This document shows, one piece after another, positions 1,462 to 16,704 of a DNA stretch of 16,704 nt. The position numbers were made by a program, and so were the translations under genes. The notes below the pieces were generated by a model. It saw nothing but the letters and a program-made list of their open reading frames with translations, was not told where the DNA came from and ran no database searches. The stretch comes from a virus. Lineage: Duplodnaviria; Heunggongvirae; Uroviricota; Caudoviricetes. Positions within the stretch are counted from its first letter, which is position 1. The number at the start of each line of letters is the position of its first letter. The DNA lies in IMG/VR virus record IMGVR_UViG_2541047712_000007. One strand, written 5' to 3'.

Positions 1462-1896
1462 ATATGTCCTTTTATCACCACAGCAAGGCAACCCATTGAT
1501 TTAATTAAACAACCCACACTGCAAAAAGTGCTAAAAACAGCAAATTGACTACACCATTAACTACACCGTTCGGTGCACTGTATGAAACAACGTGGAACAA
1601 ATAGACACAAGAAATATACAGGCGGGTAATCTTTCCAGGGGGAAGCGCACCAATTCATGAGGGGCGTTAATGTCGATATGGGGATCCCCATAACGGGGCT
1701 ACCGGATTTTTTTTCCGGTTAACTGTTAATCAGGCTGGTGGGTTTTACCTGTTCGGTAGGTGTTATGATTATCGTAATACCTTTCCCCCAGTGGGGTAAA
1801 AGCTCCAACCGTAACGATGTTCGTTGTGGTTGCCTTGATGGTCTGCGTGGTCATTATGACCATTCCCAAAAACAACATATTCGTTGTTTTTCTGTG

Positions 1897-2350
1897 CCCC
1901 GACCTCCTCAAATTGAGGAGGTCGAAAGTATCAACCAGTTACCGCGCCGACTTCCTCAAATTGAGGTTCCCGAAAATATCAGCGGGTTAACGATCAAACT
2001 GGCGAGTAATTAAACTGCGAAAATTTCGCATGTGAGGGATGTAGTCGGCGCAATTTTGCGCTTTGCTTTAATCTCAGTAAGTTACCGCGCCAACTTCCAC
2101 AGTCTGTGGAAATTGGGAAGAATCAACGGTTTAGGCCTTAATCATCTGCGTAATCATAAGTAATCATAATGTTCATTCAGCCACGCAATTTTGCGTTATC
2201 GGGAATATCAGCAAGTTACCGCGCCGGATTCCGCCAATGGCTGTTTCCGAAAGAATCAACGGGTTAGGCTGGTTTCCCCGATGTTCGCCGCTGGCGAATT
2301 TCGAAAATATCAACCAGTTACCGCCGCAACCGCTCCGGCTTCTTCCAGTG
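1897..2350. repeat. Degenerate direct-repeat array: four units of conserved box, 24-28 bp variable hairpin-prone segment, second conserved box
   Basis: Left boxes aaagtatcaaccagttaccgcgcc (1925-1948), tcagtaagttaccgcgcc (2075-2092), tatcagcaagttaccgcgcc (2206-2225), aaaatatcaaccagttaccgccgc (2303-2326). Right boxes aaaatatcagcgggttaacg (1973-1992), aagaatcaacggtttaggcc (2118-2137), aaagaatcaacgggttaggc (2250-2269). A perfect 9-bp-stem hairpin gacctcctcAAATTgaggaggtc sits at 1901-1923. Spacers carry near-palindromes gcgaaaatttcgc / gcgcaattttgcgc. Confidence 0.65.
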
Positions 2351-2599
2351 GTACGTTATTTTTTCTTTCTCCCGATGCAGTTCAACGCGGCGATTGTAGG
2401 CCAGCATTTCAAGAACGCGGATCCGTATGTTGCGCATATCAACATCATTAAGCTGGATACCATCACGGCACATCACCTCAGCAACAACACGCGCATAATT
2501 TTCGGCTGTCACGCTGTCCGGCTGCGTGGTCTGTTCGTCAGCCTGCTGGCTGATTCCAGATACGCGGCGGATTAATCCCAGTAGTTCGGCTTCTGTCAT
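2318..2599 (-). CDS. Hypothetical protein (93 aa), last gene of the packaging operon
   Basis: ATG at 2599 with a GAGG Shine-Dalgarno about 9 nt upstream, 13 nt after the TerL stop. Helix-rich translation. Its last 13 codons lie inside repeat unit 4. No family recognised. Confidence 0.5.
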   Translation of the reverse strand: MTEAELLGLIRRVSGISQQADEQTTQPDSVTAENYARVVAEVMCRDGIQLNDVDMRNIRIRVLEMLAYNRRVELHREKEKITYHWKKPERLRR

Positions 2600-2612
2600 G
2601 CTGCTGACCTCA

Positions 2613-4274
2613 TTACACCCCGCTGAATTCTTCCAGTTTCTGGCGGTGGCTGTCGCTTATATCAAAAGCAAAATCCTCATGCTCTGCCTGGAATGTACCA
2701 AACGCCATCAGTGCCGCCACGCTCGGGTCTATCTTGTTCGGTGATTTTTTCTTGTTCGGCTTGATATTGGCGTTCGCGTCACTCTGCATCACGACGTTAC
2801 TCATCGACCAGGACAACACCGGATCGCCACGATGCACAATCACCCTGCGGTTAACAAAAACTTCGAACGATTTCGCCGCCGGACTGAATCTGAGGTAGGT
2901 TTGCGGGAACGGCTCCACCTCAAAACCTGCCCCCTGTAATTGCGTTCTGAGATGCGTGGCGTTCCACGTATCAAAGCCCACCAGCCTGATATGAAATTTC
3001 TCCGCGTCCTGCATGATGTCATCTCTGATCCGGTCGTAATCAATGCAGTCGCCAGGCGTTGTGCGTATCCAGCCCGCTTTAGCCCACTGACGATAGACAG
3101 CGCGGTTTTTATTGGCGGGGTTCTGTAGCTGGAACTCCGGCAGATAATGACGGGAAATCAGCATAATGGTTTTACCGACCGGAAAGGCATAGCATACGCT
3201 GGAAATATCGCTGGTTGATGATAAATCCAGCCCCGCGTAACACTCCTGGCCGTGTAAATCTTCCTCCGTGAACGTTCCGGCACACTCAGCCCATGCGCCG
3301 TTACCCATCCACGGGGTAGCCCCCTGGCACCAGATATTAAATCGCTTTGTCATCATCTCCACCCACTGCGACGGTATTCCCCGCGCTTTCTGGATGGTTG
3401 AGGCCAGTTTTTCACGATCGACGGAAACATCGATATTGGGATTCGCCTTTATCCACATCGCCGGATCGTCAACCTCGCTTTCATCATCCAGCTCGTAAAT
3501 CAGCACGAACATGGATTCGTTCACCTCTTCACCATCCAGTATCTGGCAGCAATAGTCGTAGTGTTGTTTACAGGCTGAAACAACGTTGCTCCCCGATGTG
3601 GTGATGGCAAATAACAGCCCCTCCGGACGCGCCCCCATTCCCAGTTCAAGCGCGGAATAAACCCCGTTGTCAGGGTGCAGGTGATATTCATCCACAATGG
3701 CAAGACTCGGGTTTGTACCTTCAATGGTTGCCGCTTTTGCTGCCAGCGGCTTTAACAGGCTGTTGCTTTTCGGGTGTATCACCTTATGCGCCTGAATATT
3801 CACTCTCTTGCGTAACGGTCGGGATAAAAGGCACATCTGACGCGCATCATCAAAAACGATCCGCGCCTGGTCGCGGCTCACCGCTGCGGTGTAAATATCC
3901 TGCTGCCCGTTCTCCATAATCAAAAACCAGTTAGCCAGAATCGCGGCTGTCGTGGATTTCGCATTTTTGCGCGGCACTTCGATAAAGGCGCTCGTGTATT
4001 TGCGCCTTCCGGTGGCCTTAACCTTAAAGCCGAGGATGCACGCAAAGGCAAACTGCTGCCACGGTTCCAGCTCAATGGGTCTTCCACGCATCGGCCCTTT
4101 TACGTGCGGGCACACCCTGGAAAAGGCAATAAACCGCTCAACAACCTCACGATCGAACATGTAAAGGGGGTTTTCAAGGTCCGAAAAGTATCGTTCAACG
4201 GTCTGTTTCAGCCGTTTACAGGCCGGAATCTTGCCCGTTTTTACGTCTTCTGCGTACTTATTCCAGGCGGTCAA
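2613..4274 (-). CDS. terL: Terminase large subunit (553 aa)
   Basis: N-terminus TAWNKYAEDVKTGKIPACKRLKQTVERY is typical of TerL. Size, and position immediately after TerS with a 17-nt overlap, fit. The first codon at 4272-4274 is TTG (GAGGA upstream), so the exact start is uncertain. Confidence 0.92.
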   Translation of the reverse strand: MTAWNKYAEDVKTGKIPACKRLKQTVERYFSDLENPLYMFDREVVERFIAFSRVCPHVKGPMRGRPIELEPWQQFAFACILGFKVKATGRRKYTSAFIEVPRKNAKSTTAAILANWFLIMENGQQDIYTAAVSRDQARIVFDDARQMCLLSRPLRKRVNIQAHKVIHPKSNSLLKPLAAKAATIEGTNPSLAIVDEYHLHPDNGVYSALELGMGARPEGLLFAITTSGSNVVSACKQHYDYCCQILDGEEVNESMFVLIYELDDESEVDDPAMWIKANPNIDVSVDREKLASTIQKARGIPSQWVEMMTKRFNIWCQGATPWMGNGAWAECAGTFTEEDLHGQECYAGLDLSSTSDISSVCYAFPVGKTIMLISRHYLPEFQLQNPANKNRAVYRQWAKAGWIRTTPGDCIDYDRIRDDIMQDAEKFHIRLVGFDTWNATHLRTQLQGAGFEVEPFPQTYLRFSPAAKSFEVFVNRRVIVHRGDPVLSWSMSNVVMQSDANANIKPNKKKSPNKIDPSVAALMAFGTFQAEHEDFAFDISDSHRQKLEEFSGV

Positions 4275-4614
4275 GCTCGTCCTCTTCTTCTGTTTCCGGT
4301 GGATTTTTACGGCGGCTTATCGGGTCAAAACCGAGCAAAGAGGCCATTTTTATCATCACTCTTTCCGCGTCGGATTTCGCGCTTAATGCGGGGTTTCTGC
4401 TCTCTCCGCCCTGACTGTTAACAATGCTGAATCCGCGCGCCGCAAGGTCTGCGACGGCTTTCCGGTATATCGAGTAATTGACGCAATACAGTTCCAGATT
4501 ACTCCAGTCGGCAGGGGTCAGGTCTCCCCGTTCCGCAAGCTGCCGCGATTTTTCCCGCCACTGCTTCACGGCGATATCATCCAGGTAGGCGGGGACTTTC
4601 GGTGGTCTTGCCAT
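4258..4614 (-). CDS. terS: Terminase small subunit, P27-like family (118 aa)
   Basis: N-terminal MARPPKVPAYLD motif, size, acidic C-terminus, and position directly upstream of and overlapping TerL. Confidence 0.85.
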   Translation of the reverse strand: MARPPKVPAYLDDIAVKQWREKSRQLAERGDLTPADWSNLELYCVNYSIYRKAVADLAARGFSIVNSQGGESRNPALSAKSDAERVMIKMASLLGFDPISRRKNPPETEEEDELDRLE

Positions 4615-4903
4615 GCTTATTTTTTCGCCAGATTATTTTTCAAAAAATTACCGTGCATAAAAATTTGGGGAGGCGTTCGGTGCCCGGCGGGGTCGGGTTT
4701 GTCCTGAAAACGCCCCCCACCCCGTCATACAGCCTCATCAGCGATTGCGGAAACATTCCATAACCTCGCAGTCACGGTCGGTTAATCGCTTCGCTGTGAT
4801 GCGTTCTGCGCGTCCTGACGCTTTATCTTTATGCCCTGTTTCTTGTGTCTTCCATGCGTCACGCTGCCTTATAAGTCCACGGATAAGGCGGTTTTGTTCC
4901 CGC
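4615..4903. other. HNH-TerS intergenic region; candidate cos/packaging initiation site
   Basis: A 289-bp non-coding gap between the HNH and TerS genes, the position where HNH-associated cos phages keep cos. It contains an AT-rich tract with tttttcaaaaaa (4621-4660) followed by a GC-rich block ggggaggcgttcggtgcccggcggggtcgggtttgtcctgaaaacgccccccacccc (4667-4724) with an imperfect inverted repeat. Confidence 0.3.
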
Positions 4904-5344
4904 TCATTCATCAGCGTCATACATCCAGTTATTGCGGTTAGCGGCCCGTTCTTCCTCTTCACGAAATCCACCTGCGGCACGCTTGCTTTTTGTTGCCGGA
5001 TCAAGCCATTTCGTTTTCTGGTTATGGCACGCCTGGCACAATGGCTGATGGTTCCATTCGGGCCAGAAGAGAACATCATCACCGCCATTAATCGGGATAA
5101 TGTGATCCACCACCACGGCGGGCGTATATATCCCCTTCTCAAGGCATCGCACGCATAACGGGTTTTTACTCAGATACATGGCGCGGTATTTGTCCCACTG
5201 TCTGGAGTACCCACGCGCGCGGCGGTGTCCTCGTCTGGCATCCTCTGCACGCCATGCCGCCCGCCTGTGCTCCTCACACTTGCCGGACTTCACGCGCCTG
5301 TTACAGCCTGGTTCTGTGCATCGTCTTAATGGTTGCCACGGCAT
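4904..5344 (-). CDS. HNH endonuclease (146 aa)
   Basis: Cys-rich zinc-binding motifs (CTEPGCNRRVKSGKCEEH, CVRC, CQACHNQ) and the HNH core VVDHIIPINGGDD...NHQPLCQACHN. Confidence 0.9.
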   Translation of the reverse strand: MPWQPLRRCTEPGCNRRVKSGKCEEHRRAAWRAEDARRGHRRARGYSRQWDKYRAMYLSKNPLCVRCLEKGIYTPAVVVDHIIPINGGDDVLFWPEWNHQPLCQACHNQKTKWLDPATKSKRAAGGFREEEERAANRNNWMYDADE

Positions 5345-5640
5345 CAGTACACCCCCACATCACGGTAAGCCGTCCAGAGTGCACCAATCGTCATGGGTAC
5401 GCGTGTTTTTGCGTTATCCGCGACAATCTGGCGATTTTCATACAGGTGAGCGATAAACATCATGCAGCCAATCTTTATGGCTGGCGTGAACTCCAGCCCG
5501 TCATCAAAGCGCCTGCCTATGTGTATCTGGCACGCCTCAAGCGATGCGGCGATGTATCCGCTGATTAACTGGTCTTCCTCGTCGCCATCGATGCGGCAAT
5601 GGAGTTTCACTTCTTCCAGGGTGATAAGTTCTTCTGTCAT
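5344..5640 (-). CDS. gp6-like head-tail connector protein (98 aa)
   Basis: MTEELITLEEVKLHCRIDGDEEDQLISGYIAAS matches the N-terminal pattern of phage gp6-type connector proteins. Start overlaps the upstream stop (ATGA). Confidence 0.7.
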   Translation of the reverse strand: MTEELITLEEVKLHCRIDGDEEDQLISGYIAASLEACQIHIGRRFDDGLEFTPAIKIGCMMFIAHLYENRQIVADNAKTRVPMTIGALWTAYRDVGVY

Positions 5641-5975
5641 TTTTCCGCGCCCTCACGACAAAGAATTTCAAGGCGTGTCCTGGCGGCATCCGGCAGCGGC
5701 TGCCCGATGATATTCAGTACACGCCCCGCCAGCGGCCCCGTATTGACCTTTATCCGGCTGGTGGCGTTGATGTCCTTCCTGTAGCGTATCCATATCCTTA
5801 CCGTTCCAGTCGCCAGTTCTGCACCCGATGAAATGGCCTCCTTGCTGCTGATCATGTTCACGCTTGCCCAGAGTGTGTGACCGTCCTCCCACGTTTCGAG
5901 TATTTCGCCGGTTATATCCCTGGTCTGTTTCAGGGTCTGAATCGTTACCCTGTCACGCAGTCGCCCTATGTTCAT
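5637..5975 (-). CDS. Head-tail adaptor / head-closure protein (Phage_H_T_join-like), about 112 aa from the internal ATG
   Basis: RLRDRVTIQ...IRYRKDI...LEILCRE pattern. The ATG at 5975 overlaps the portal stop (ATGA) and has a GAGGGAG upstream. The ORF extends in frame to an ATG at 6017 that has no Shine-Dalgarno. Confidence 0.7.
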   Translation of the reverse strand: MNIGRLRDRVTIQTLKQTRDITGEILETWEDGHTLWASVNMISSKEAISSGAELATGTVRIWIRYRKDINATSRIKVNTGPLAGRVLNIIGQPLPDAARTRLEILCREGAEK

Positions 5976-7183
5976 TCCGGTTTTTCTCCCTCGCTGATTT
6001 TTACTTCCTGTTTCCATGCCTGGCTGAACTCATCACCACCATCACGCGGGGACAGCCCTTCACGTTCGCGGGCTTCGTTCGGGCACATAACGCCGGATTT
6101 GATGCCGCGTTCATAGGTGGCAAAGCGTTCGCCAGGAGTGGCCCGTAACAGGTCCGCGCTGTCAAACTCCACCTGATACCGGATACCAGGTACAGGTGAG
6201 GCCACCAGCAGGGCGTTTTTTATCTGCTGCTCAAAGTTCGCCAGCCACGGGCGCATCGTCATGGTGAGAAATGCGCGGCTTGCCTCGCTGAAATTGCTGT
6301 AGGTGCTGTTGCTGTATTCCTGCAAAAAAATCGGCGAGACGTTGAACATTCGGGCGATGTCTTCAATGGTGAAGCGACGGGAGGCCAGCCATTCAGCATC
6401 CTGATTACTCATGCCCAGCTGCTGATAGCTCATACCCCCTTCAAGGATGGGCGTTTTTCCGGCGTTTCTGGCCCCTTTGTAGCGTTCCAGTGCGGCTAAT
6501 GCCTGTTTGCCCTTCACGCCGTCCAGCCATTCGCCTGACGTGATAACCCCTGCCGCCATCATGCCATCACGCATCACGCTCGCGCCGTGGCGTTGTTGGG
6601 CCAGCCCAAGCCCCAGCGATTCGCGGCAGATGGTTACAGGTGAGCGCCCCATAAAACCGTCATCCGTGGAGTAACGAAGGTGGAGAACCTCCCACGGTAA
6701 ATAGTTGCGGGTGTTTCCGGTGTAGGCGTCAGTGATGCAGTAGCGCCAGTTATGCTCACCTGTCTGCTCAACGTTCACCGACTGCGGCGGGTAAGGATGC
6801 AAAGCGACTGGAAAACCATCACGCCCCCACTGAATCACCGCATAAGCATTACCGTTTAACAGGCAGTGGCGGATCATCATTCGCTTAAACTGGTAGGGGG
6901 TTTGCCATGCGTTCGGGCGCTCGTTGAGGATGTGATCGACCGGATGAGAATCAAGCCACTCTCGGGCCTCCTTCCCCTTCTCATTGCGTACCAGGTACAG
7001 GTAACACGGCATGGTAGCCACCGCCTCAGAGATGACCGTGACGGCGTTCATGACGGCGGGCAGTGATTCCGCTGTCCCCGATGATACGTACTCACCCGCC
7101 CCCGTGTTCGATGTGCCAGCCAGCGCCATAAACTCATCAAGCGTCATGCTGCGCTGCTCTTTTTTTCTTCTGAAAGGCCACAT
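5972..7183 (-). CDS. Portal protein, HK97 family (403 aa)
   Basis: Size and the motif RRFTIEDIARMFNVSPIFL characteristic of HK97-type portals. ATG at 7183 with a G-rich Shine-Dalgarno. Confidence 0.93.
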   Translation of the reverse strand: MWPFRRKKEQRSMTLDEFMALAGTSNTGAGEYVSSGTAESLPAVMNAVTVISEAVATMPCYLYLVRNEKGKEAREWLDSHPVDHILNERPNAWQTPYQFKRMMIRHCLLNGNAYAVIQWGRDGFPVALHPYPPQSVNVEQTGEHNWRYCITDAYTGNTRNYLPWEVLHLRYSTDDGFMGRSPVTICRESLGLGLAQQRHGASVMRDGMMAAGVITSGEWLDGVKGKQALAALERYKGARNAGKTPILEGGMSYQQLGMSNQDAEWLASRRFTIEDIARMFNVSPIFLQEYSNSTYSNFSEASRAFLTMTMRPWLANFEQQIKNALLVASPVPGIRYQVEFDSADLLRATPGERFATYERGIKSGVMCPNEAREREGLSPRDGGDEFSQAWKQEVKISEGEKPE

Positions 7184-7184
7184 A

Positions 7185-7757
7185 TCACACCCCCGCTAAA
7201 TCCGCCCACCAGCGGCGATTATCCGCACGCGGCATTTTTTCGGGGTGCTGCTCGTACAGGGAGCGGCGGGCCAGCTCCACGCCGGAATCAGGGTAAGCCG
7301 GTACGGATGTAACGGTAATTTCGTATAGTTCCGCCACCAGCACGGTGCGCACGCATGGATCTGTTGTGGTATCCCATACATCCTTACGGGAACGAAAGCC
7401 AAAGCTCATGCCGGATATATCACCTCGTTTAACCAGTTCGATAACGTCGCGCCCTGTACTGGTATCCGGTGGGGTCAGTTCAAAGCGTAACCCTGTTTCG
7501 TCCTCTTCCAGTTTCAGCGTGCCGGAACGGGTGCGCCCCAGTAACATGCTGTGGTCATGCTCATACAGGCCGCGAACGTCATTACCCGCCGCAAGCCACT
7601 CAGTAAACGCCCCCCGCTGGAATTTTTCGTAAAACTCCCCCCATAGCAGTTCTGAAAGCTTATCCCAGCGAACAACGTAGCCCGTCAGCGTACCGGCTCC
7701 GCTGGTAGTGATTTCCGATGACCGGATTTCCATACTCTTCATAATTTTTTCACCCAT
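7185..7757 (-). CDS. Prohead maturation protease, HK97 family (about 180-190 aa)
   Basis: GYVVRWDK...LYEHD...LGRTRSGTLKLEEDETGL matches the HK97 prohead protease family. The start could be the ATG at 7757, 7742 or 7733. Confidence 0.88.
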   Translation of the reverse strand: MGEKIMKSMEIRSSEITTSGAGTLTGYVVRWDKLSELLWGEFYEKFQRGAFTEWLAAGNDVRGLYEHDHSMLLGRTRSGTLKLEEDETGLRFELTPPDTSTGRDVIELVKRGDISGMSFGFRSRKDVWDTTTDPCVRTVLVAELYEITVTSVPAYPDSGVELARRSLYEQHPEKMPRADNRRWWADLAGV

Positions 7758-7786
7758 AAAACACTAAAGGGGCTTTTAAGCCCCTT
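7757..7786 (-). terminator. Intrinsic terminator or attenuator between the capsid and protease genes
   Basis: Minus-strand hairpin aaggggcttaaaagcccctt (8-bp stem, 7767-7774 pairing with 7779-7786) followed by a U-rich run (uaguguuuua). Confidence 0.5.
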
Positions 7787-7796
7787 CTGTATGCTG

Positions 7797-8954
7797 TTAA
7801 TCGTCGTCCTGTGGCAGTTCCAGAATCTTGATCGCGTTCGAATCCACCACGCCACCGCCTAAATATTTCTGCGTGAAAATTTTGATGAAGCCCGGCTCTG
7901 TGAGGTTGTCCGGTCTGGTGCGAACACCTGTTTCGTGATCAACAATGTAGTAACCGCGTTTGAAGTCACCCAGGGCAATAACGTTATCAGGCATAAACTC
8001 CAGATATTCGACCGGAAGGCCCAGCAACGTATCAGGATCACCCGCCTGTAAACGGTCGCGCCAGATGTAATCACCGTTCGCGTTCTTCACCTTCTGAAGT
8101 TTTGCCGCCGTCGTGGAGTTAACCACCCAGACCGCGTTTTTGCGGTATTTTTTACGTAATGCAAATTTCAGGTCGATCAGCGGGTCCGCAGATGTCCACG
8201 CCAGAGATTCGGAAGGTTTAATTACCTGCAACGTACCAAAATCACGCTCTTTGTCGTTCTTCTCTGCACGGGGTACGGATAAAAAACCTTTTGCTTTTTT
8301 GTCACCGTCGCCCACAACCAGATCGCTTTCTTCGGTTTCCGTGAAGGTGTCGCCAATCTCACCCGTCAGCCATGAAAGGATGTCCACATCGGAAAAATCC
8401 ACGATTTCCTGTGTGGTGCGCGGGTACGCATAGACCGGATACAGCTTAATGCTCACCTCGTTAATCTGCGGGGTGCTGGTCTGTTCGCGTGTCTTACCCT
8501 CTTCACCGTGGTTAACGGTCGCACCGCCAGCGGAAACAAGCTGCTTAAACTCGTTGCTGCTGATTTTCTTCACGGTACAGATGCGGCGCATGGTGGATTC
8601 ATCCGTCAGCATTCGCATGATTTCGGTGTTCAGTTCGGGGATAACGGTATAACCACCATCAGCGGGAACGCCTGTACTTAATGCGCGGGTTTCACCTGTC
8701 AGAATGTAGTTGCGTAGTTCTGCGGGGTCAGTGGTCTGGCTGCTTTTACCTGGCTTGCTGCGCTCTTCGTCTGCAATGGCTTCAAGGCGGGAAATGTCTT
8801 TATCGAGGGATTCAGCTTTAGCGCGTAATTCGTCAAATTTTGCGCCCTCAGCATCGTTAAGACTGCGGTTTTCTTTTTCCGCGTTCTCCAGCATGTCGCG
8901 CATCTGATTTTTAATGGCGGTTTTCTGCTGGCGTAATTCGATTATTCTCGGCAT
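7797..8954 (-). CDS. Major capsid protein, HK97 fold, with N-terminal coiled-coil delta/scaffold-like domain (385 aa from the ATG at 8954)
   Basis: HK97-family capsid-like C-terminal two thirds. The N-terminal roughly 90 aa are charged and heptad-like, and no separate scaffold gene exists. ATG at 8954 with AGGA upstream; the ORF track extends to a GTG at 9002. Confidence 0.92.
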   Translation of the reverse strand: MPRIIELRQQKTAIKNQMRDMLENAEKENRSLNDAEGAKFDELRAKAESLDKDISRLEAIADEERSKPGKSSQTTDPAELRNYILTGETRALSTGVPADGGYTVIPELNTEIMRMLTDESTMRRICTVKKISSNEFKQLVSAGGATVNHGEEGKTREQTSTPQINEVSIKLYPVYAYPRTTQEIVDFSDVDILSWLTGEIGDTFTETEESDLVVGDGDKKAKGFLSVPRAEKNDKERDFGTLQVIKPSESLAWTSADPLIDLKFALRKKYRKNAVWVVNSTTAAKLQKVKNANGDYIWRDRLQAGDPDTLLGLPVEYLEFMPDNVIALGDFKRGYYIVDHETGVRTRPDNLTEPGFIKIFTQKYLGGGVVDSNAIKILELPQDDD

Positions 8955-9234: not shown

Positions 9235-9241
9235 TGTGTGA

Positions 9242-9514
9242 TTATCTGTCCTGGTAATTTCGCCATATTTCATCGCTTACACCATCTATACCCATTTCAG
9301 CATAAGTGCGATCTACTGCCTTTCTCAGGTCTCCGAAGTTATCCGGCGGCTCCGGTGGCTTCTGTGCCTTCCTGGAACATTCCAGCCGTCGCATCGTAAC
9401 CTGATGCCGTTCCTTGTCTGTCTCCACCAGCAGCATGACTTCACCCCATCGCGCCGACGCCCTCCGGTAAAAGCCTTTCGCCTCGAGTTCTTCCGCTATG
9501 CGGTCATGTACCAT
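9242..9514 (-). CDS. Hypothetical protein (about 91 aa)
   Basis: ORF downstream of ssb. The ATG at 9514 has a GAGGGG Shine-Dalgarno 6 nt upstream; the track ORF extends to 9634 but would overlap ssb. No family recognised. Confidence 0.5.
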   Translation of the reverse strand: MVHDRIAEELEAKGFYRRASARWGEVMLLVETDKERHQVTMRRLECSRKAQKPPEPPDNFGDLRKAVDRTYAEMGIDGVSDEIWRNYQDR

Positions 9515-9524
9515 CGCCACCCCC

Positions 9525-9935: not shown

Positions 9936-10210
9936 GATTCCACCTCTCCGGTTTTAACGTTGATGGTTGTTACCTGTTCCGCTTCGGCAATCTCCCGTTC
10001 TGTCAGCGTGGCAAAGTTTGCCGCCGCCGTGGTCATGAATGCGCTTATCAGTTCGGGATGTGCTTTCGCGTATCCTTCCCCCGCGTGGCGGTCTATCGTT
10101 CTGATTGCCACCTTTAAAGCGTGCTCTGTCATGTCTAACGCGCGATATTTCGGTTCTGTTCTGTCTCTGCGTTTTTTGAGTGATTTATTAAATTTCCCTG
10201 AAGTGTGCAT
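9932..10210 (-). CDS. Hypothetical protein (92 aa), first gene after the origin
   Basis: ATG at 10210 with a GAGGGGG upstream; translationally coupled to ssb. No family recognised. Confidence 0.5.
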   Translation of the reverse strand: MHTSGKFNKSLKKRRDRTEPKYRALDMTEHALKVAIRTIDRHAGEGYAKAHPELISAFMTTAAANFATLTEREIAEAEQVTTINVKTGEVES

Positions 10211-10254
10211 ATTTATTTTTACCCCCTCGTTTAAAAAGTTTTGAGTTGTGCCTC

Positions 10255-10490
10255 CCCTTGTCTACCTTATCTACCTTACTGGCTCTCATGCCAGTAATGG
10301 CGCGGCTTTCAGCGGGGTAGAGTGCTTTTATCCACTATCTACCCCGTGTCTACCTCCCTGTCTGATTCAGGTAAAATCAGGTAGAGAGGGTAGATAGTGG
10401 GTAGACAGTAAAAAAAGGCTATCTACCTAACTTAATGCACTGAATTAAATGTATTTTTCTTTACTCAGGTAGACAGGGTAGACAGCAATT
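10255..10490. repeat. Iteron-type replication origin
   Basis: At least 11 copies of the 7-mer GGTAGA(C/G/T) in both orientations (for example tgtctaccttatctacc 10259-10275, ggtagagagggtagatagtgggtagacag 10380-10408, caggtagacagggtagacag 10466-10485), interspersed with A/T tracts, directly 3' of the primase gene. Confidence 0.75.
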
Positions 10491-10498
10491 ACAAAAAA

Positions 10499-12253
10499 TT
10501 ATAAAAACGCGTCGCACTCGTCTGTTGTTATTGCGTTAGTCTGCGTTACTCCCTTAACTTTCCGCGTAATATATTCATGTCCGTAAACTTTCGCGGCTGG
10601 CTTCATAGCCTTGCCAAAGTCATTTACGTTTAGCGGTTTGCTCCTGCCTGCGTACGCCATAAACGCCAGATAGACGCGGTAAAGACTGTTTCTGGTCGTG
10701 TACTTCACTGAATCGCCACCGCCGCCCATCATCAGGCCGCGTGCTTCCTCCAGAAAATTCAGGAACTGGCAAAACTCAATAACCGGATCCGTCTGTTGCT
10801 TTATTGCCAGAGCTTCATCACCGTCACGCTGTTCCAGTAGTAAAGCCCTCGCCTTCTCAGGGTCGGTAAAGTTCGCCAGCAATCGGCGGATAATGACAGG
10901 GATTTCAGCCGCGATCTTTTCCGGTAGCTCCCTGTCTTTTTCGGCCTCACTGACGATATTGTCGAAACGGAAAATCACGCGACGACGTGCCACACCTCCG
11001 GCCCGTTCGGTGAATATCATCGGGTTATTGTTGGTCGCCAGCACCACCGCCCTGATTACAGCCGTGAAACGCTTTTCGTATTTCGGGTTAATTTCCACGG
11101 GGTCACCGCCCGTGATTTTCTTGATGCCCGTTCCTTCGCCTGTATATTTCGGCTGGTCAGCCAGGACGATAAGACGACTCCCGACAACCTGCGCACGTCC
11201 ACCAGCATCATCAAGCGATGTCATTTCAGCGCTTACCGTGTTCTGTTTCCCTGCCAGAAGGCTGGCTATGTGTGTGAATGTACTTTTACCGCTCCCGCCG
11301 TCTCCGGTGGCCTCAATAAACATCTGCCAGTCGTACCGGTTCGCCATAATCATGTACAGCGCGGCACATATACGCATCATCTTGCGCGGGTCTTTTCCGG
11401 CTGCGTGCTCAAGCCATTTATGAAAGTTTGGCGCGTTATCGCGGATGTTCTCCCCTGGTGCTGGTGGCGTGTACTCAATGCCGTTGTGCGTGGTGATCCA
11501 GTTCTCCGGCGTGTGCGGGGAAAATTCCCCCGTTTTCAGGTCAAGCGCACCATTGGCGAACGGCAGCAAATCGCCGGACGGCTCGCCCATTGGTTCGGCA
11601 ATAACTTTTAACGCTTCCACGGCGTTATTGATTACGCGCTTGCTGAAAGTGGCCCTGTGCTCTGAATAGATCGCCACCATTTCGCGGCTAAGTTCCATTG
11701 TGCTGACCGGACACCATACCCCGCCGCGCCATACGTGAACGATTTCACTTTCAGGATGTACGCAAACGCCATCAAAGCGATCGGCAAGCAGCTGCGCGCG
11801 CTCACTGTCCGCCATCTGCGAAAGTTGCGCCTTTTGCTTTACCGGAAGCTCAATGACCAGACCATCAGAAAGATTCTGGCGCTCACGGGCCAGATATTCG
11901 CGCCAGTTCTCCACCTTCTGACCGTGCATACCCTCAGGATAAAAATTTGCATCCTGTACGCCTGCCGCCGCCAGCTTCTGGCCAATCGCCTTTATCATTA
12001 CTGGCGCAAGATATCCGGCCCTGAATATGCGCACGGATTTTCTGCCTTCCGGCACAATTTGCAGCTTATCCAGTTCTGATAACTGCTGCTCCCCAAGCCA
12101 CACAGGAGGCTCATTATCTCCGGCCATACGCGCATCATGTTCCTGCCATTGTTTCGCGTGTGCCCAGGCATCACTACCCGCAAAAATAATGACTTCTGTT
12201 CCTTTGTGTTTTATGCCGCGTGACTGCTGTTTTACGTTCGGTGCCAGTTTCAT
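10499..12253 (-). CDS. P4-family primase / SF3-type helicase replication protein (584 aa)
   Basis: Walker A motif TGDGGSGKSTF in the C-terminal half, size, and the position upstream of the iteron origin. ATG overlaps the upstream stop (ATGA). Confidence 0.9.
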   Translation of the reverse strand: MKLAPNVKQQSRGIKHKGTEVIIFAGSDAWAHAKQWQEHDARMAGDNEPPVWLGEQQLSELDKLQIVPEGRKSVRIFRAGYLAPVMIKAIGQKLAAAGVQDANFYPEGMHGQKVENWREYLARERQNLSDGLVIELPVKQKAQLSQMADSERAQLLADRFDGVCVHPESEIVHVWRGGVWCPVSTMELSREMVAIYSEHRATFSKRVINNAVEALKVIAEPMGEPSGDLLPFANGALDLKTGEFSPHTPENWITTHNGIEYTPPAPGENIRDNAPNFHKWLEHAAGKDPRKMMRICAALYMIMANRYDWQMFIEATGDGGSGKSTFTHIASLLAGKQNTVSAEMTSLDDAGGRAQVVGSRLIVLADQPKYTGEGTGIKKITGGDPVEINPKYEKRFTAVIRAVVLATNNNPMIFTERAGGVARRRVIFRFDNIVSEAEKDRELPEKIAAEIPVIIRRLLANFTDPEKARALLLEQRDGDEALAIKQQTDPVIEFCQFLNFLEEARGLMMGGGGDSVKYTTRNSLYRVYLAFMAYAGRSKPLNVNDFGKAMKPAAKVYGHEYITRKVKGVTQTNAITTDECDAFL

Positions 12254-12549
12254 TTTTTACCCCTGAATCCTTTAATCATGGTTTTCATCTTCTGAATATT
12301 GGCGCGTGCTTTCTCCCTGCTGGTGGGCACGTTACGCGGTACGGCCTGCACAAGAGAAAAATCACGGTCGAACTGATAAACAGGCATCACGCAATCATAT
12401 TCGTAGCCTTCACGACGGTAGGTTACGCGCCGTTCCTCCACGCCCTTAATCATTACCGTGCCGCCGTACTTATCGCGGTAAATATCACCGCGCATGAATT
12501 TAGTGCGAGTTTTGCCACTGGCAGTTAAGCCAGAATATTTAAGTTTCAT
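12250..12549 (-). CDS. Hypothetical protein (99 aa), basic
   Basis: ATG at 12549 with GGAGAA upstream; translationally coupled to the primase. No family recognised. Confidence 0.6.
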   Translation of the reverse strand: MKLKYSGLTASGKTRTKFMRGDIYRDKYGGTVMIKGVEERRVTYRREGYEYDCVMPVYQFDRDFSLVQAVPRNVPTSREKARANIQKMKTMIKGFRGKK

Positions 12550-12554
12550 TATTT

Positions 12555-12788
12555 TTATTCTCCGGTGTGGGGCGCTTTATACTGGTCGTGTAATGTCTCT
12601 ATTTCCTGCAACTCATTTATTACAGGCTCAAGAAGCGTTATTAATGCCGTGACAATCCTTGATTTCTGTTTATCACGTTCATTATCTCCAAGCGTTTCAA
12701 GACATATGCGCAATATTTCCAACATATTTTCACTGTGAGAAAGTGCAAGAAATGCGCGGTCTATTGTTTCGTGGTAAATATCACGCAT
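12555..12788 (-). CDS. Hypothetical protein (77 aa)
   Basis: ATG at 12788 with GGGGA Shine-Dalgarno; tightly packed in the operon. Confidence 0.55.
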   Translation of the reverse strand: MRDIYHETIDRAFLALSHSENMLEILRICLETLGDNERDKQKSRIVTALITLLEPVINELQEIETLHDQYKAPHTGE

Positions 12789-12789
12789 A

Positions 12790-13011
12790 TTAATCCCCGT
12801 CCGTCGTTTTTCTTAAAATAACCTCTGTCACGAAATCAGCATAATCGGCGGCGATATTCAGTACATCAAGCCCCGTTGATTTATATTCTCTCGTGGAAAG
12901 TAAGAAAAAAGCCGCTCTAATAAGCTCTGGCATTGACGAAAGCGCATCAGCCGCATCATCAGGAACGCCGGAAAATTCCTGTTTCAGGGAATTAAAACGA
13001 TCATCACGCAT
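12790..13011 (-). CDS. Hypothetical protein (73 aa), acidic
   Basis: ATG at 13011 with AGGGGGG Shine-Dalgarno; overlaps the upstream stop. Confidence 0.55.
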   Translation of the reverse strand: MRDDRFNSLKQEFSGVPDDAADALSSMPELIRAAFFLLSTREYKSTGLDVLNIAADYADFVTEVILRKTTDGD

Positions 13012-13369
13012 GTTTACCCCCCTGAATGACCTGATAACCGCAACTGGTCAGCAACTCGATAAATTCCGGCAGTGTGCCGAAACAGCAATCATCACGCAGC
13101 CGTTCGCAGGATACCTCGACGCCGTTTTCGTAGTGACTCACCATACATCCGGTAAAATGCAGATCATCATCGTGATGGCTCGTTGACGGCTTAATCAGTC
13201 GCGCACGTTCCGCCAGTTCCAGCAATGCTTCAACGCTTCCGGCAATTGCACCATCCGGCAGGTGATAATTACGCACTATGCGCCCGTTCTCCACATTGAC
13301 CAGCAACTGCCCGGTAAATTTCTCGTCAAACTGAATGCTGTTAAGGTCAGAAATTGACAGGTTATGCAT
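13004..13369 (-). CDS. Hypothetical protein (about 121 aa)
   Basis: ATG at 13369 (MHNLSISD...) with GGAGG upstream, overlapping the upstream stop; the track ORF extends to 13387. Confidence 0.55.
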   Translation of the reverse strand: MHNLSISDLNSIQFDEKFTGQLLVNVENGRIVRNYHLPDGAIAGSVEALLELAERARLIKPSTSHHDDDLHFTGCMVSHYENGVEVSCERLRDDCCFGTLPEFIELLTSCGYQVIQGGKHA

Positions 13370-13586
13370 GGTGCACCTCCTGCACATCAGCCATGATAAT
13401 TTTTCCGGCCTTATCCAGTGCCTGATCGGCTTTTAGCTGCACAAATGCTAAATAATGGAAGATGCATTCTGATTCTCTGGCTGCGTGTTTATGCGCCCTG
13501 TCAGCAATAACAGAAATATCAATAAGCGCGTGCATCAGCGTAGTGAGCGCGGCGGCTGCTGCGTCCGGTGTGGTTTTATTGCACAT
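13362..13586 (-). CDS. Hypothetical protein (74 aa)
   Basis: ATG at 13586 with AGGGGGT Shine-Dalgarno. Confidence 0.5.
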   Translation of the reverse strand: MCNKTTPDAAAAALTTLMHALIDISVIADRAHKHAARESECIFHYLAFVQLKADQALDKAGKIIMADVQEVHHA

Positions 13587-13782
13587 GGCCTACCCCCTGG
13601 CGAATACGGGCAGCGAATACCATCACGCAGCCATCAGGAGATTGCTGACGCGCTTCCTGTTCGCTGGTGGCCTCGATGGTAATCACGCGCGGTTGTGCCG
13701 TGCTCAGGGCGATAAAACGCCAGATGTATTTATTCAGGTCGTGCGAATCCCGCCCTTGCGGGTGTGTGGTATGATTTCTCAT
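13576..13782 (-). CDS. Hypothetical protein (68 aa), first gene of the leftward operon
   Basis: ATG at 13782 with GAGG 5 nt upstream. It is the C-terminal, plausible part of a 430-aa track ORF whose remainder is antisense to plus-strand genes and the operator region. Confidence 0.45.
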   Translation of the reverse strand: MRNHTTHPQGRDSHDLNKYIWRFIALSTAQPRVITIEATSEQEARQQSPDGCVMVFAARIRQGVGHVQ

Positions 13783-13878
13783 AGCTACCTCGATACTTTC
13801 GCTATCGTTGGTGGTTAGAAGCCCGGTTAGTGTTAGCGCACTGCCGGGTTTCGTCGTTTCTGCACCTTGCGCCAACAA

Positions 13879-13931
13879 GGTGTTGAACACCAATTTAAAC
13901 CCAGGTGTTAAACACGTCAAGTGTTGAACAC
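13879..13931. promoter_or_regulatory. Triple palindromic operator in a divergent promoter region
   Basis: Three copies of the palindrome GTGTT-N-AACAC: gtgttgaacac (13880-13890), gtgttaaacac (13905-13915), gtgttgaacac (13921-13931), lying between the leftward operon start (13782) and the plus-strand RHH gene (13982). Confidence 0.7.
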
Positions 13932-13981
13932 TTATTTTTTTTCCTGCATACTGCATTTGTTTTTTATGAGGGGTACACCAC

Positions 13982-14161
13982 ATGGCGACAAAAGCAGTAA
14001 ACGCAAAATCACAAACCGTTGCGGCAAGGGTTCCGCATGAAGTTATGAACAATGTTGAGGCGGTAAAAATGCCTGGCGAAAGTACGGGGCAATTTGTTAC
14101 TGCGGCATTAAAACGAGAAGTTGAATATCGCCAGCGGCGCAAGGCCAAAGAACCAGAGTAA
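13982..14161 (+). CDS. Ribbon-helix-helix (Arc/CopG-like) DNA-binding protein, 59 aa; candidate island repressor
   Basis: ATG at 13982 with GAGGGG Shine-Dalgarno. The translation has an RHH-like beta-strand (QTVAARVPHEV) followed by two helices. Below the ORF-track length cutoff; I translated it directly. Confidence 0.6.
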   Translation: MATKAVNAKSQTVAARVPHEVMNNVEAVKMPGESTGQFVTAALKREVEYRQRRKAKEPE

Positions 14162-14218
14162 TCACCATCAGCGCCGTGGTGTGAGGAACTACGGCGCATT
14201 GCTATGCAGGACAACACA

Positions 14219-14392
14219 ATGACCGATAAAGAATTGACCAAAACATTATCACCGGCACGGAAAAGACGGCGCAGAAAGATAGAGCATGAATCAGAAAGAT
14301 TCGCGCCATGTGCTTTTGCCCTTGAGCAATTCCTTAAAGAGTACAGGGAAAAGCGCTCATTGCAGGTATGGCAACGAACTGAACCAGACTGA
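14219..14392 (+). CDS. Hypothetical small basic protein (about 57 aa)
   Basis: ATG at 14219 with AGGA 7 nt upstream (track ORF starts at 14204). Arg-rich (RKRRRRK); followed by a plus-strand terminator. Confidence 0.3.
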   Translation: MTDKELTKTLSPARKRRRRKIEHESERFAPCAFALEQFLKEYREKRSLQVWQRTEPD

Positions 14393-14470
14393 TTGCATTG
14401 CCCACCAGCCGCAAATGTGGCATTGTTGGCAATGCTCATGCGTTGGGGATAACGTGTAGCTTGTGTCGAG

Positions 14471-14500
14471 GGGCCACCGTAGCGGGTGGCCTTTGTTTTG
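14471..14500 (+). terminator. Rho-independent terminator (plus strand)
   Basis: Hairpin ggccacc-gtagcg-ggtggcc followed by tttgttttg. Confidence 0.6.
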
Positions 14501-14594
14501 CCCGTTATTCGGCAATTGTGGCGCTTCTCCACATGGTTGATATAATCCCACTGCTCAGATTCATTTTTTGCGCAGTAGGTTAATTGTTCACAAA

Positions 14595-14626
14595 GGCGCT
14601 CCGGCAACGGGGCGCTTTTTGTTTTT
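14595..14626 (+). terminator. Rho-independent terminator (plus strand), GNRA loop
   Basis: Hairpin gcgctccg-GCAA-cggggcgc (8 bp including one G-U) followed by tttttgttttt. Confidence 0.6.
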
Positions 14627-14920
14627 ATTAGTTTGTAGAAACCTGACTCAGAGATAATGCTCATATTCTGATTGCCGTCAGGGGTGTAAGTTAAATTTAC
14701 TCCCTTTTTATCATCAAACATCTGCAACGCTCTGGCGTTAGCAATATTGGTTTCACTCCCGCCAGTAAGGCCGGAAATAACCGGAATAATTTCGGCAAAA
14801 TTTTGCAGATTCTGTTTTTCAGGACGAACGAAGCCCCGCCCTTGTTCGGGAGAATATCCAGTATTCATGGTTAGATCTCTGTATTAGTGGATGGGTGGCG
14901 GCTGTGTGCCGCCAGCCTGA

Positions 14921-15109
14921 TTAGTGAACTGCCTCGCAGCTGTCCTTCCATGCCAGAACTTCGGATAAAGACCAGCCAACGGAACGACCGCCCAGCTTAC
15001 GCCGTGATGGGAATTGTCCGGCTTTTTCCAGGCGGTACCGACATGAGCGGCTCAGGCCTGTAAGTTGCTGACATTCTTTTTCACGTATAAAGCGATCTGT
15101 GCTTAACAC
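14921..15109 (-). CDS. alpA: AlpA-family transcriptional regulator / excisionase-like protein (62 aa)
   Basis: QQLTGLSRSCRYRLEKAGQFP...KLGGRSVGWSLSEVLAW matches the AlpA winged-helix signature. GTG start at 15109 with AGGGGGAA upstream. Confidence 0.8.
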   Translation of the reverse strand: MLSTDRFIREKECQQLTGLSRSCRYRLEKAGQFPSRRKLGGRSVGWSLSEVLAWKDSCEAVH

Positions 15110-15113
15110 AATT

Positions 15114-15195
15114 CCCCCTTTGTTGTTTCTTAAAGAGTCATTGGGTGGATTATTGGGTTGGGTTGTGTCGGATTGTGTCAGGGTGTTTGTGGAAT
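15114..15195. promoter_or_regulatory. TTGT-rich phased direct repeats immediately upstream of alpA
   Basis: 10-bp register: ttgggtggat / tattgggttg / ggttgtgtcg / gattgtgtca / gggtgtttgt (15141-15190), preceded by tttgttgtttc (15117-15127). Confidence 0.45.
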
Positions 15196-15390
15196 GGCAA
15201 ACACTGGCGGCGGTCGTTTTACAGAAGCAGGGGGAATGAGAATAAAAACTCTTTTAATTCATTATGATGCAAAGGCATAAAATTTTACTTTTACGCCTTT
15301 TTTACATATTTTTAAGAGTGATTCGCCAGTGTATAAAAAAACAGTACACCTATAAAAATCAAATGGTTATTACGATGGCTGATTTTTAAC

Positions 15391-15450
15391 CCGTTGTTCC
15401 ATTTTGTTCCTTGTTGTTCGTCGTTGTGTCTCGTTGTTTCACGTTGTCCG
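15391..15450. repeat. Six tandem 10-bp repeats (NCGTTGTNYC) 3' of int
   Basis: ccgttgttcc / attttgttcc / ttgttgttcg / tcgttgtgtc / tcgttgtttc / acgttgtccg in an exact 10-bp register. Confidence 0.6.
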
Positions 15451-15474
15451 CGTCCTGAAAAATCGCAAAAAAAA

Positions 15475-16704
15475 TTATATTTCTCTGGCTATTGGCAATG
15501 TGGTTACGTTTTCATGTGTTCCCGCCAGTATCCCTAACCGCTCCGTCCACATATCCAGCGCGTCACGTTTCGCATCCAGATAACGGGAATGGTTATAGAC
15601 TCGTTGCATCCCTGGCATCTGATGACCTGTAAGCTGCTCCACGACGTGAGGATCCACGCCTAAATCGTTCAGCATCGTTGTAAAGGTGCGCCGGATGTCA
15701 TGCAGTGACCAGTGAGGGTGTTTTAGCCTCCTGTGCGCTAATCTGCCGTACTGCGACACGCTTGTTTCCTGTTTCACTTCCCCCAGCAATAAGCCCGTGT
15801 GCCTGTTCTGCTCCACCAGCTGCGTGACGAACGGCAGTATTGCTTCCGGTATGGGCCGGAATATTGCCACCTTCGTTTTGCTGTGTTCTTTCGGCACGGT
15901 CCAGAGCATTTCGGTAAAATCCCACTCGCTGATCTCCGATAACCTCAGTTCTACCGTCCGGCATCCGAAAACAATCAGGAGGCGGATTAGTGCGACGTAG
16001 TAAGGGGAAAATATTTTTTTGTCCAGTGCCTGCAATAATTCGCCAAGTTCTTTGGTGCTTAAGACGCGCTCGCTTATATCCGGTTTTTTCCCAACGTCCG
16101 CCACACTCATATCATCAAGAACGTTGCTGATTGCATAGCGCCGCCTCCGGCAGAACTTAAGCGCCTGTTTGCACGTCTGTAGCAAGAATCCGGCAGTAAC
16201 AGGCGTTCGCTTTGCCACCTGGTCAAAACAGGCCAGCCAGTGCCGTAGCTCGCATTTATCCAGCGGCATAGCACCAATGTGCTGTATTACGTGATTATTA
16301 AGGCGCTTTTTCAGGGCGGCATAATCCACGCGGTTTTCCTTTGCGTACGACTCAAGCCAGTAGGTGAGCGCATCGCCAACCGTTACCGGCTTTAACGCTT
16401 CCTGTACGGTGTAATTCATTTCATGACGTGGATTTTTCCCCTCTGCCAGCCATGCGCGACACTGGGCGGCTTTTTCCCTGGCTGATTTCAGGCTCAGATC
16501 AGGATAATTTCCCAGCTTAATGCGTTCCGGTGGTGCCCCCCTTCCCGTTCCGGCCCTGTAAGTGAAATACCAGGTTAAAAGGCCACTGGTTGAATGCCTG
16601 ACGCTCAGGTTTCCACCGTCATTAAGAAAGGCTGTTTTTTGGGCGGGTGTGCCGTTGATTTTCCTCAGCTGTGTATCGCTCAGTTTGTTAAGTGCTCTGC
16701 TCAT
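15475..16704 (-). CDS. int: Tyrosine integrase, P4-like family (409 aa)
   Basis: C-terminal catalytic signature LHDIRRTF...GHQMPGMQRVYNHSRY (His-x-x-Arg box plus terminal Tyr) and a long N-terminal arm/core-binding region. Start codon is the last three bases of the window. Confidence 0.93.
   Translation of the reverse strand: MSRALNKLSDTQLRKINGTPAQKTAFLNDGGNLSVRHSTSGLLTWYFTYRAGTGRGAPPERIKLGNYPDLSLKSAREKAAQCRAWLAEGKNPRHEMNYTVQEALKPVTVGDALTYWLESYAKENRVDYAALKKRLNNHVIQHIGAMPLDKCELRHWLACFDQVAKRTPVTAGFLLQTCKQALKFCRRRRYAISNVLDDMSVADVGKKPDISERVLSTKELGELLQALDKKIFSPYYVALIRLLIVFGCRTVELRLSEISEWDFTEMLWTVPKEHSKTKVAIFRPIPEAILPFVTQLVEQNRHTGLLLGEVKQETSVSQYGRLAHRRLKHPHWSLHDIRRTFTTMLNDLGVDPHVVEQLTGHQMPGMQRVYNHSRYLDAKRDALDMWTERLGILAGTHENVTTLPIAREI

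Follow-up and report, generated by a model that had tools for sequence, protein, structure and literature searches.

A Tail-Less Island between phoQ and roxA Is Very Probably an Intact Capsid-Forming Phage-Inducible Chromosomal Island and a Natural Mosaic of Two Published Elements

Introduction

What is an element that carries the genes for building and filling a phage head, inserted in a bacterial chromosome with no tail or lysis genes beside them? The question is raised by IMG/VR record IMGVR_UViG_2541047712_000007, a stretch of 16,704 nucleotides (the window, by which we mean this whole stretch) in which an island follows the host gene phoQ. An earlier note, made from the letters alone, had read it as a tail-less satellite with a complete HK97-type head and packaging module, resembling the phage-inducible chromosomal islands that form capsids (cf-PICIs). 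Our analysis bears this reading out, because every feature of cf-PICIs that can be tested on sequence was found. We put at roughly 93% the probability that the window element is an intact cf-PICI with an integrase of the P4 family and is naturally mosaic, combining two published elements that share one integration site.

The cf-PICIs are an important recent discovery: these satellites build heads and fill them with DNA themselves, take from phages nothing but tails, and can hence cross species boundaries. Their prototype, EcCIEDL933, is a 15.4 kb element of strain EDL933 with a gene content matching that of the window island (Alqurainy et al., bioRxiv 10.1101/2022.09.08.507074). Published experiments on EcCIEDL933 established alpA-dependent induction, the formation of small capsids encoded by the island and the need for every packaging gene as well as for the tail genes of a helper. 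The genes int, alpA and rep are common to classical PICIs and cf-PICIs, the latter integrating at several attB sites (bioRxiv 10.1101/2022.09.08.507074). The capsid of EcCIEDL933 has been modelled as a T=4 particle (PDB 9GYI; He et al., 10.1101/2025.02.11.637232), and the window capsid protein is identical to this chain, stated to be the EcCIEDL933 capsid, which ties the island to the prototype. Its sequence marks it as a closely related variant of EcCIEDL933 that occupies the prototype's chromosomal site in Escherichia coli. The locus has a history of its own, as O-island 51, CP-933C and Sp7 are one locus, which carries pchE together with the gene for the regulator RgdR (ECs1581, a DUF4222 protein; PMC3378721). 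Since both family and locus are published (bioRxiv 10.1101/2022.09.08.507074; 10.1101/2025.02.11.637232; PMC3378721), the island is not new; the element type, the roxA/phoQ locus, the solved capsid and the PchE/RgdR cargo are all on record, and no new principle emerges. Two cis elements are undescribed in the cf-PICI literature cited here, namely a stretch upstream of terS that is likely to be the cos site and, at the end of the island, integration host factor (IHF) sites and hairpins arranged as an array.

Gene Content of the Island

The criteria published for cf-PICIs include a size of ~10–18 kb (10.1101/2025.02.11.637232). The window island measures 15,416 bp between the two copies of its attachment (att) core, in agreement with the ~15 kb of the earlier note. 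It encodes a recombinase (integrase, PF00589/PF13356), a regulator of the alpA type (AlpA, PF05930) and replication functions of its own (a primase-helicase, PF08706/PF19263/PF03288, and an iteron origin), and the eight genes of the capsid and packaging set (8/8) are all intact and follow the canonical order of the prototype. We searched 22 annotated open reading frames (ORFs), together with 10 spare ones taken from the six-frame translation of non-coding DNA, against Pfam and PHROGs with profile hidden Markov models (HMMs), and detected no tail, baseplate, tape-measure, holin, endolysin, spanin or defence family in any of these 32 ORFs. Hypothetical proteins were also compared with NCBIfam and PADLOC, which added no such family, and none of them had a PADLOC match that would indicate defence cargo. 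The flanks are the host genes phoQ and roxA, and the core between them holds only PICI-type islands in the four genomes compared (the window, EDL933, Sakai and CFT073), so that the attachment site is one of the islands' own. The functions named in the earlier note were recovered throughout: profile HMMs supported the integrase, AlpA, primase and single-stranded DNA-binding protein (SSB), as well as the capsid protein with its scaffold-like domain, the protease, the portal, both connectors, the HNH protein, TerS and TerL, and the absence of tail and lysis families that it had asserted held in the HMM survey.

The Capsid and Packaging Operon

The packaging genes lie on the minus strand and are transcribed in the order capsid, protease, portal, closure, adaptor, HNH, orf60, TerS and TerL; percentages in this section are amino acid identities to the EDL933 island. 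The major capsid protein (7797–8954; PF05065, E 3e-61) has the HK97 fold and is identical to PDB 9GYI at 385 of 385 residues; its N-terminus consists of a ~92-residue coiled-coil delta (scaffold) domain that ends at an SxGxxAD cleavage motif (residues 93–99). Given this identity, the island would be expected to form small T=4 capsids that package island DNA alone. Next come an S78 prohead serine protease similar to HK97 gp4 (7185–7757; PF04586; 97.9%) and the portal (5972–7183; PF04860, E 9e-91; 99.5%). The two connectors are a head closure/completion protein, Hc1 (5637–5975; PF05521, TIGR01563; 94.6%), and a gp6-like head-tail adaptor, Ad1 (5344–5640; PF05135; 100%). The alpA-mediated induction by a helper and the reliance on helper tails shown for the prototype may hold here too.

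The remaining genes of the operon encode an HNH endonuclease, a packaging cofactor of HK97-type terminases (4904–5344; PF01844, phrog_144; 99.3%), the small hypothetical protein orf60 between HNH and TerS (4738–4920; phrog_3173), TerS of the P27 family (4258–4614; PF05119; 99.2%) and TerL with its ATPase and nuclease parts (2613–4274; PF03354 and PF20441, E 1e-49; phrog_9, E 1.5e-180; 98.7%). From its position, orf60 is probably the equivalent of "gene 1792" of EcCIEDL933. The Sakai record names the HNH gene of its island "holin protein" (ECs_1595, positions 36296–36736 of our locus L003), a misannotation that could falsely suggest a lysis gene; Pfam and PHROGs clearly assign the gene to the HNH endonucleases.

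Boundaries, Attachment Site and Mobility

Both junctions were compared with the empty phoQ-roxA site of strain K-12, in which the sequence AAATATGCCC occurs once within a spacer of 75 bp. The comparison with this uninserted strain gave a precise 10 bp duplication: the island is flanked by the direct repeat AAATATGTCC, common to both junctions. The int-distal copy lies at 1460–1469 and overlaps the stop codon of phoQ, the host gene that occupies 1–1461 on the plus strand (annotated in our locus L001 and at the K-12 site). The second copy falls outside the window, at window-equivalent 16876–16885, and is followed by the host gene roxA. The earlier note had placed the island downstream of phoQ at 1462–16704; the location stands and the edges do not, as the left core starts at 1460, the right core copy lies ~175 bp past the end of the window and the island reaches ~180 bp past it. 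For the sequence beyond this right edge we used L001, the genome THO-008, which differs from the window by 2 nt. There, roxA begins 249 bp after the integrase start and is followed by pepT, potA and potB, host core genes thus stand on both sides, and no tail or lysis gene adjoins the island. The earlier note had named tail or lysis genes past this edge as a refutation of its reading, and the sequence does not bear that out. A separate prophage with tail-fibre genes lies beside potB in L001 (29814–32704, ~5 kb past the island) and is not contiguous with it; Sakai has the lambda-like Sp6 where L001 carries this prophage.

An IHF-consensus site was found beside the att core (1489–1501, minus strand). 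Two direct repeats of the form ATT(G/A)ACTACACC follow at 1544–1567 on the plus strand, with a matching pair on the other attP arm at window-equivalent 16726–16783, and these pairs of the ATTAACTACACC type on each arm are plausible arm-type sites for the N-terminal arm-binding domain of the integrase. No tRNA gene was detected in the window and the att site is intergenic, so a tRNA was rejected as the integration target. Downstream of phoQ, coding is almost entirely on the minus strand (every island gene but one small plus-strand ORF), the GC skew is negative from ~2000 onward and ~850 bp of non-coding DNA separate orf93 from phoQ.

Before 2022 the locus was annotated in another way, as an inert, degraded remnant of a cryptic prophage that is no longer mobile and has kept its head genes by chance. 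Older records speak for it: the homologous island is entered as "prophage Sp7; untypable" in the Sakai record, O-island 51 was called a degraded cryptic prophage in PMC3378721, and older labels include "CP-933C cryptic prophage" and "highly degraded prophage of P4 remnants". The lack of tail and lysis genes would also fit. Cryptic prophages, however, are recognized by truncated or pseudogenized remnants of several modules, whereas all of the ~20 genes here are intact and full length relative to a prototype tested in functional assays, and what is missing is one whole module that has left no tail or lysis fragments and no pseudogenes. The precise att duplication likewise argues against decay, as do near-identical islands at a second att site with another integrase and the experimentally established mobility of EcCIEDL933, and we regard the remnant explanation as improbable.

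The second site is tqsA, in which another strain carries an island 97.6% identical to ours with a diverged integrase (our locus L005), which demonstrates mobility as well as a capacity to exchange the integration module. The packaging module was matched in 538 of 5,426 complete E. coli genomes, with coverage of at least 80% in 412, and all matches were chromosomal; the whole window was covered to at least 80% in 128 complete genomes. None of 50,697 phage records exceeded 78% identity, in keeping with a distinction between cf-PICIs and phages already claimed in the literature.

Mosaic Structure of the Island

Comparison with the other islands of the phoQ/roxA site revealed breakpoints at ~2600 and ~9213, between which lies a 6.6 kb HK97-type capsid and packaging cassette of the EcCIEDL933 type. 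On this side, window positions 1402–9240 are 98.3% identical in DNA to Sp7 of Sakai, a 15.46 kb island at the roxA/phoQ site of this O157:H7 strain, and the island of EDL933, likewise O157:H7, occupies the same site with the same genes. The early half, on the other hand, is that of EcCICFT073, the prototype of the classical Gram-negative PICIs (Rpp type): DNA identity is 94–95% over 9214–13011 and 13568–16704, and the proteins are 98–100% identical. Overall, the island resembles EcCIEDL933 in its phoQ/roxA att site, its size of 15.4 kb, its gene order, its PchE-like and RgdR-like cargo and its non-coding end with the IHF array; its packaging proteins, which align over their full length, are 94.6–100% identical, and the major capsid protein, the adaptor, SSB and orf93 are identical.

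Several observations weigh against reading the island as an intact cf-PICI. The replication protein is of the 584-residue D5/DUF5906 type, whereas that of EcCIEDL933 is a 710-residue protein of the DUF927 type. About 330 bp present between the pchE-like and capsid genes of EcCIEDL933 and Sp7 are missing here (window 9003–9241); in EDL933 and Sakai this stretch holds an ORF of 74 amino acids (ECs_1589), and the tqsA-site island is short in the same way. Relative to EcCIEDL933, the head closure protein has 6 substitutions among its 112 residues, the protease has 4 among 190 and TerL has 7 among 553. The replication swap, the ~330 bp loss and the substitutions could alter induction, expression or tail choice. 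A further difference lies in the small genes between alpA and the primase gene, which are not the same as in EcCIEDL933, and in AlpA, which is 91.9% identical.

From these observations one may construct an alternative in which a functional cf-PICI module has been joined to a mismatched early half, recombination with a classical PICI and the ~330 bp deletion upstream of the capsid gene having uncoupled the packaging operon from induction, so that the island replicates and is packaged poorly. The mosaic breakpoints at ~2600 and 9213 and the missing Sp7 sequence are what such a history would leave behind. Yet the tqsA-site island combines the same short arrangement with the same early half, the 128 genomes that carry at least 80% of the window argue for a successful lineage, and EcCIEDL933 itself shares int, alpA and rep with classical PICIs (bioRxiv 10.1101/2022.09.08.507074). 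We accordingly give little credence to an uncoupled operon, even less than to a cryptic remnant, and retain the intact cf-PICI as the preferred interpretation.

Integration, Regulation, Replication and Cargo

The early half of the island, on the minus strand unless stated otherwise, starts with the tyrosine integrase of the P4 family (15475–16704; PF13356, PF00589), whose start codon is the last triplet of the window and which is 98.8–99.0% identical in amino acids to the integrases of EDL933 and CFT073. AlpA, an excisionase-type regulator and the induction switch of PICIs, follows at 14921–15109 (PF05930, E 3e-18; 98.4% identical to EcCICFT073). The primase-helicase (10499–12253; D5_N, DUF5906 and Pox_D5 C-terminal domains; 99.0% amino acid identity to EcCICFT073) resembles the EDL933 protein over its N-terminal 227 residues only, at 65%. 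Directly downstream of its gene, a replication origin candidate (10256–10488) contains RTCTACC/GGTAGAY motifs in both orientations, flanking an A/T-rich stretch; nine RTCTACC copies fall within 10260–10483, and the 10 copies in the whole window compare with 1.9 expected by chance, which confirms the iteron origin proposed in the earlier note. The integrase, which belongs to the P4 family and has an Arm-DNA-bind_3 domain, AlpA, and the relationship of the primase-helicase to P4 alpha could suggest, along with the P4 similarities remarked on in PMC3378721, a P4-type satellite that redirects the capsid proteins of its helper instead of building its own, a class recognized by sid, psu, delta and epsilon and by the lack of capsid genes; this least probable of the alternatives is refuted at the level of gene content, given that no ORF belongs to the Sid, Psu, Delta or Epsilon families and that the island has a complete capsid, protease, portal and terminase set, with the capsid protein of a solved island capsid.

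Between the origin and the packaging operon lie orf92, a hypothetical gene (9932–10210; phrog_1231), the SSB gene (9525–9935; supported by Pfam; 100% amino acid identity to the EDL933 island) and a gene for a PerC-family regulator orthologous to PchE (9242–9514; PF06069, E 2e-44; 97.8% amino acid identity; pchE is ECs_1588 in Sp7). After the PerC-like gene, a terminator-like hairpin (9218–9235, minus strand), recognized as a consensus match only, divides the early genes from the packaging operon. On the other side of the primase gene, a DUF4222 protein (12250–12549) is the orthologue of RgdR (ECs1581), to which it is 85.9% identical, and it retains the RGD motif at residues 20–22. PchE and RgdR are published regulators of virulence and motility in enterohaemorrhagic E. 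coli; the closest database matches to the window carry no O157 label.

The small genes upstream are less easily delimited. Four hypothetical genes (12555–13586; 77, 73, ~121 and 74 amino acids) belong to PHROG families of unknown function, and two of them are 100% identical to their EcCICFT073 counterparts. An open frame of 430 codons spans 13576–14868 and is also open in CFT073, with in-frame indels. A single gene was rejected for this frame, as its middle part shows no codon-position bias in its substitutions, whereas the YnfO-like ORF and the Icd-like part show coding patterns. The frame, for which RefSeq gives a 310-residue "Icd-like protein", is a composite in which Icd-like sequence is confined to the last ~68 codons (13576–13782; NF033153, E 1e-19; phrog_6196), where the codon-position pattern is consistent with coding. 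A gene of the YlcI/YnfO family runs antisense inside it (13982–14161, plus strand; NF041551; phrog_949; substitutions 23/9/32 by codon position) and is the sole plus-strand gene of the island. The part just downstream of alpA (14500–14868) is ill defined, with a weak BRO-N/Ant-like stretch, and reads on as the 430-codon frame, which is probably not all coding. The sole match to Rfam was a sub-threshold hit to symR, the SymR antitoxin RNA, at 13783–13855 on the plus strand (E 0.005; 33 bits, with a gathering score of 61). It faces, in antisense, the stretch immediately upstream of where the icd-like gene starts. The match reappears in the near-identical L005 alone, being absent from L007 and L009, and we treat this unproven symR-like RNA as a candidate only.

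A Candidate cos Site and an Array of IHF-Consensus Sites

In HNH-dependent cos phages with genomes of the HK97 type, cos is expected between the gene on the HNH side and terS. The corresponding region of the window, between orf60 and terS (4615–4737, minus strand), contains just upstream of terS a GC-rich motif, GGGGTGGGGGGCGTTTTCAGGAC, at 4723–4701, followed by an A/T-rich stretch. The linear record LR881103.1, of a 16.5 kb element with cf-PICI architecture that was sequenced from an induced lysate, terminates exactly within the motif homologous to this one, and its first base lies 22 bp ahead of terS. This suggests that cos cleavage may take place near GGGGTGGGGGGCGTTTTCAGGAC, a reading that is suggestive only, as the termini of the record are possibly conventional rather than physical. 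The lambda cosN, GGGCGGCGACCT, is absent from the window; it is exact in the classical PICI of ATCC 25922 (L007) and has been reported for EcCICFT073.

At the int-distal end, a scan for repeats and consensus sites uncovered an array of ~7 units (1896–2334, plus strand), each made of a short palindrome of variable sequence and a conserved GAAAATATCAACCAGTTACCGCGCC that contains an IHF consensus. The palindromes differ from unit to unit while their symmetry is kept (CGACCTCCTCAA/TTGAGGAGGTCG, TTCCACAG/CTGTGGAA, TTCGCC/GGCGAA), and the conserved 25-mer fits the IHF consensus WATCARNNNNTTR, which occurs exactly and co-oriented six times within 400 bp; the window as a whole has 10 occurrences, where 1.09 would be expected. 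Next to the array lies orf93 (2318–2599, minus strand; phrog_1561), a conserved hypothetical gene that classical and capsid-forming PICIs alike carry at their int-distal end; the array accompanies it in the classical islands too, its copy number differing between islands. The repeat is present in ~1,300 E. coli islands. No match to window 1473–2330 was found among the 50,697 phage records.

Several identities of this array were considered. A lambda-type cosB was rejected because GGGCGGCGACCT is missing from the window yet exact in a classical PICI, and a consensus scan for promoters and terminators in the array gave nothing above chance. The small RNA Esr41 was rejected for the non-coding end, Esr41 being located on SpLE1 and not on this island. 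Folding z scores (minus strand, −4.1; plus strand, −2.5) restate the palindromes and do not separate a role as RNA from one as DNA. We tentatively raise the idea, towards which we lean less than away from it, that the ~440 bp array is an undescribed cis-acting element of enterobacterial PICIs. Possible roles would be an IHF-organized architecture for excision or integration, or an insulator between the late operon of the island and the convergent phoQ.

Proposed Life Cycle

The following steps are all modelled on the prototype EcCIEDL933. A helper phage would trigger expression of alpA, and AlpA would then drive excision at the AAATATGTCC core and switch the island genes on. The primase-helicase would replicate the circle from the iteron origin downstream of its own gene, assisted by the island SSB. 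From the portal, the delta-domain capsid protein and the S78 protease, the packaging operon would build a T=4 procapsid of the HK97 fold, ~47 nm (47.5 nm) across. TerS, TerL and HNH would cut at cos, probably just upstream of terS, one unit of 15.4 kb would fill the capsid, and the gp6-like adaptor and the head closure protein would complete a tail-less, DNA-filled head. Infectivity would arise only after this head has docked to a siphovirus tail made by the helper. Adaptor and connector decide tail choice (He et al., 10.1101/2025.02.11.637232), and because EcCIEDL933 has the very same adaptor and a closure protein that matches the one here at 94.6% identity, the predicted tail specificity is of the HK106/HK446 type.

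Comparison with Known Systems

Among solved structures, the next-best relative of the capsid protein is the capsid of the Rhodobacter capsulatus gene transfer agent (PDB 6TB9/6TBA, E 3e-46), which also forms a small HK97-fold head. The gene transfer agent differs from the island in that it packages random host DNA and has its own tails, and in that it lacks an integrase, a replication module and cos-specific packaging.

HK97 shares with the island a P27-type TerS, TerL, the HNH protein, the portal, the S78 protease, a capsid protein with a delta domain and SxGxxAD motif, the gp6 adaptor and the head closure protein. The gene order of the island is permuted relative to HK97 (capsid, protease, portal, closure, adaptor, HNH, TerS, TerL), and sequence similarity is low, HK97 gp5 not being among the PDB matches at E<1e-5. 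Island-type capsids have T=4 against T=7 in HK97 and no capsid crosslink, as published for the EcCIEDL933 type, and modules for tails, lysis or lysogeny are missing from the island. P4, for its part, has in common with the island the integrase family, an AlpA-type regulator, a primase-helicase with an adjacent origin and the dependence on a helper. However, P4 takes the capsid proteins of its helper P2, resized by Sid, whereas the island encodes a capsid and terminase itself and lacks sid, psu, delta and epsilon.

A closer counterpart is "Escherichia phage vB_KppS-Ant" (LR881103.1, our locus L006), an induced prophage of 16.5 kb with the same architecture, including TerS, TerL, int, primase, major capsid protein, protease, portal, closure, adaptor and HNH; its DNA from portal to HNH is 77% identical to the window. 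It belongs to another lineage with another integrase and other cargo, and its depositors entered it as a phage rather than a satellite. In this record, a gene of 765 amino acids after TerL (2036–4333) is annotated "tail length tape measure protein"; it is probably a mislabelled accessory gene.

EcCICFT073 and the window island share the att site, and their integrases are 99.0%, their AlpA proteins 98.4% and their primases 99.0% identical; the two small ORFs that are 100% identical and the homologous flanks with SSB, PerC and orf93 add to the likeness. Classical Gram-negative PICIs are characterized by Rpp/TerS-like redirection, capsid remodelling and a lambda-like cosN. Lambda-like cos sites are a feature of these classical islands and not of the window island, in which an HK97-type cassette stands in the place of the remodelling module: EcCICFT073 has there a 3.1 kb capsid-remodelling/Rpp module that relies on helper capsids and helper terminase, and the window island a self-sufficient cassette of 6.6 kb. 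Another classical PICI (L008, NZ_CP138217.1, 7452–9322) lies directly against a portal gene, itself truncated, of a lambda-like prophage whose head and tail genes continue beyond, an arrangement that looks like the "helper-embedded satellite" of bioRxiv 10.1101/2022.07.18.500453. Read side by side, the sequences of the window island and the two published elements show the self-sufficient capsid cassette and the classical remodelling cassette apparently swapped as blocks between the same flanks (SSB/PerC on one side, orf93 on the other) and at the same att site. The value of the window island is modest and lies in its being a clean natural mosaic, one that illustrates modular exchange between two satellite types at a single att site.

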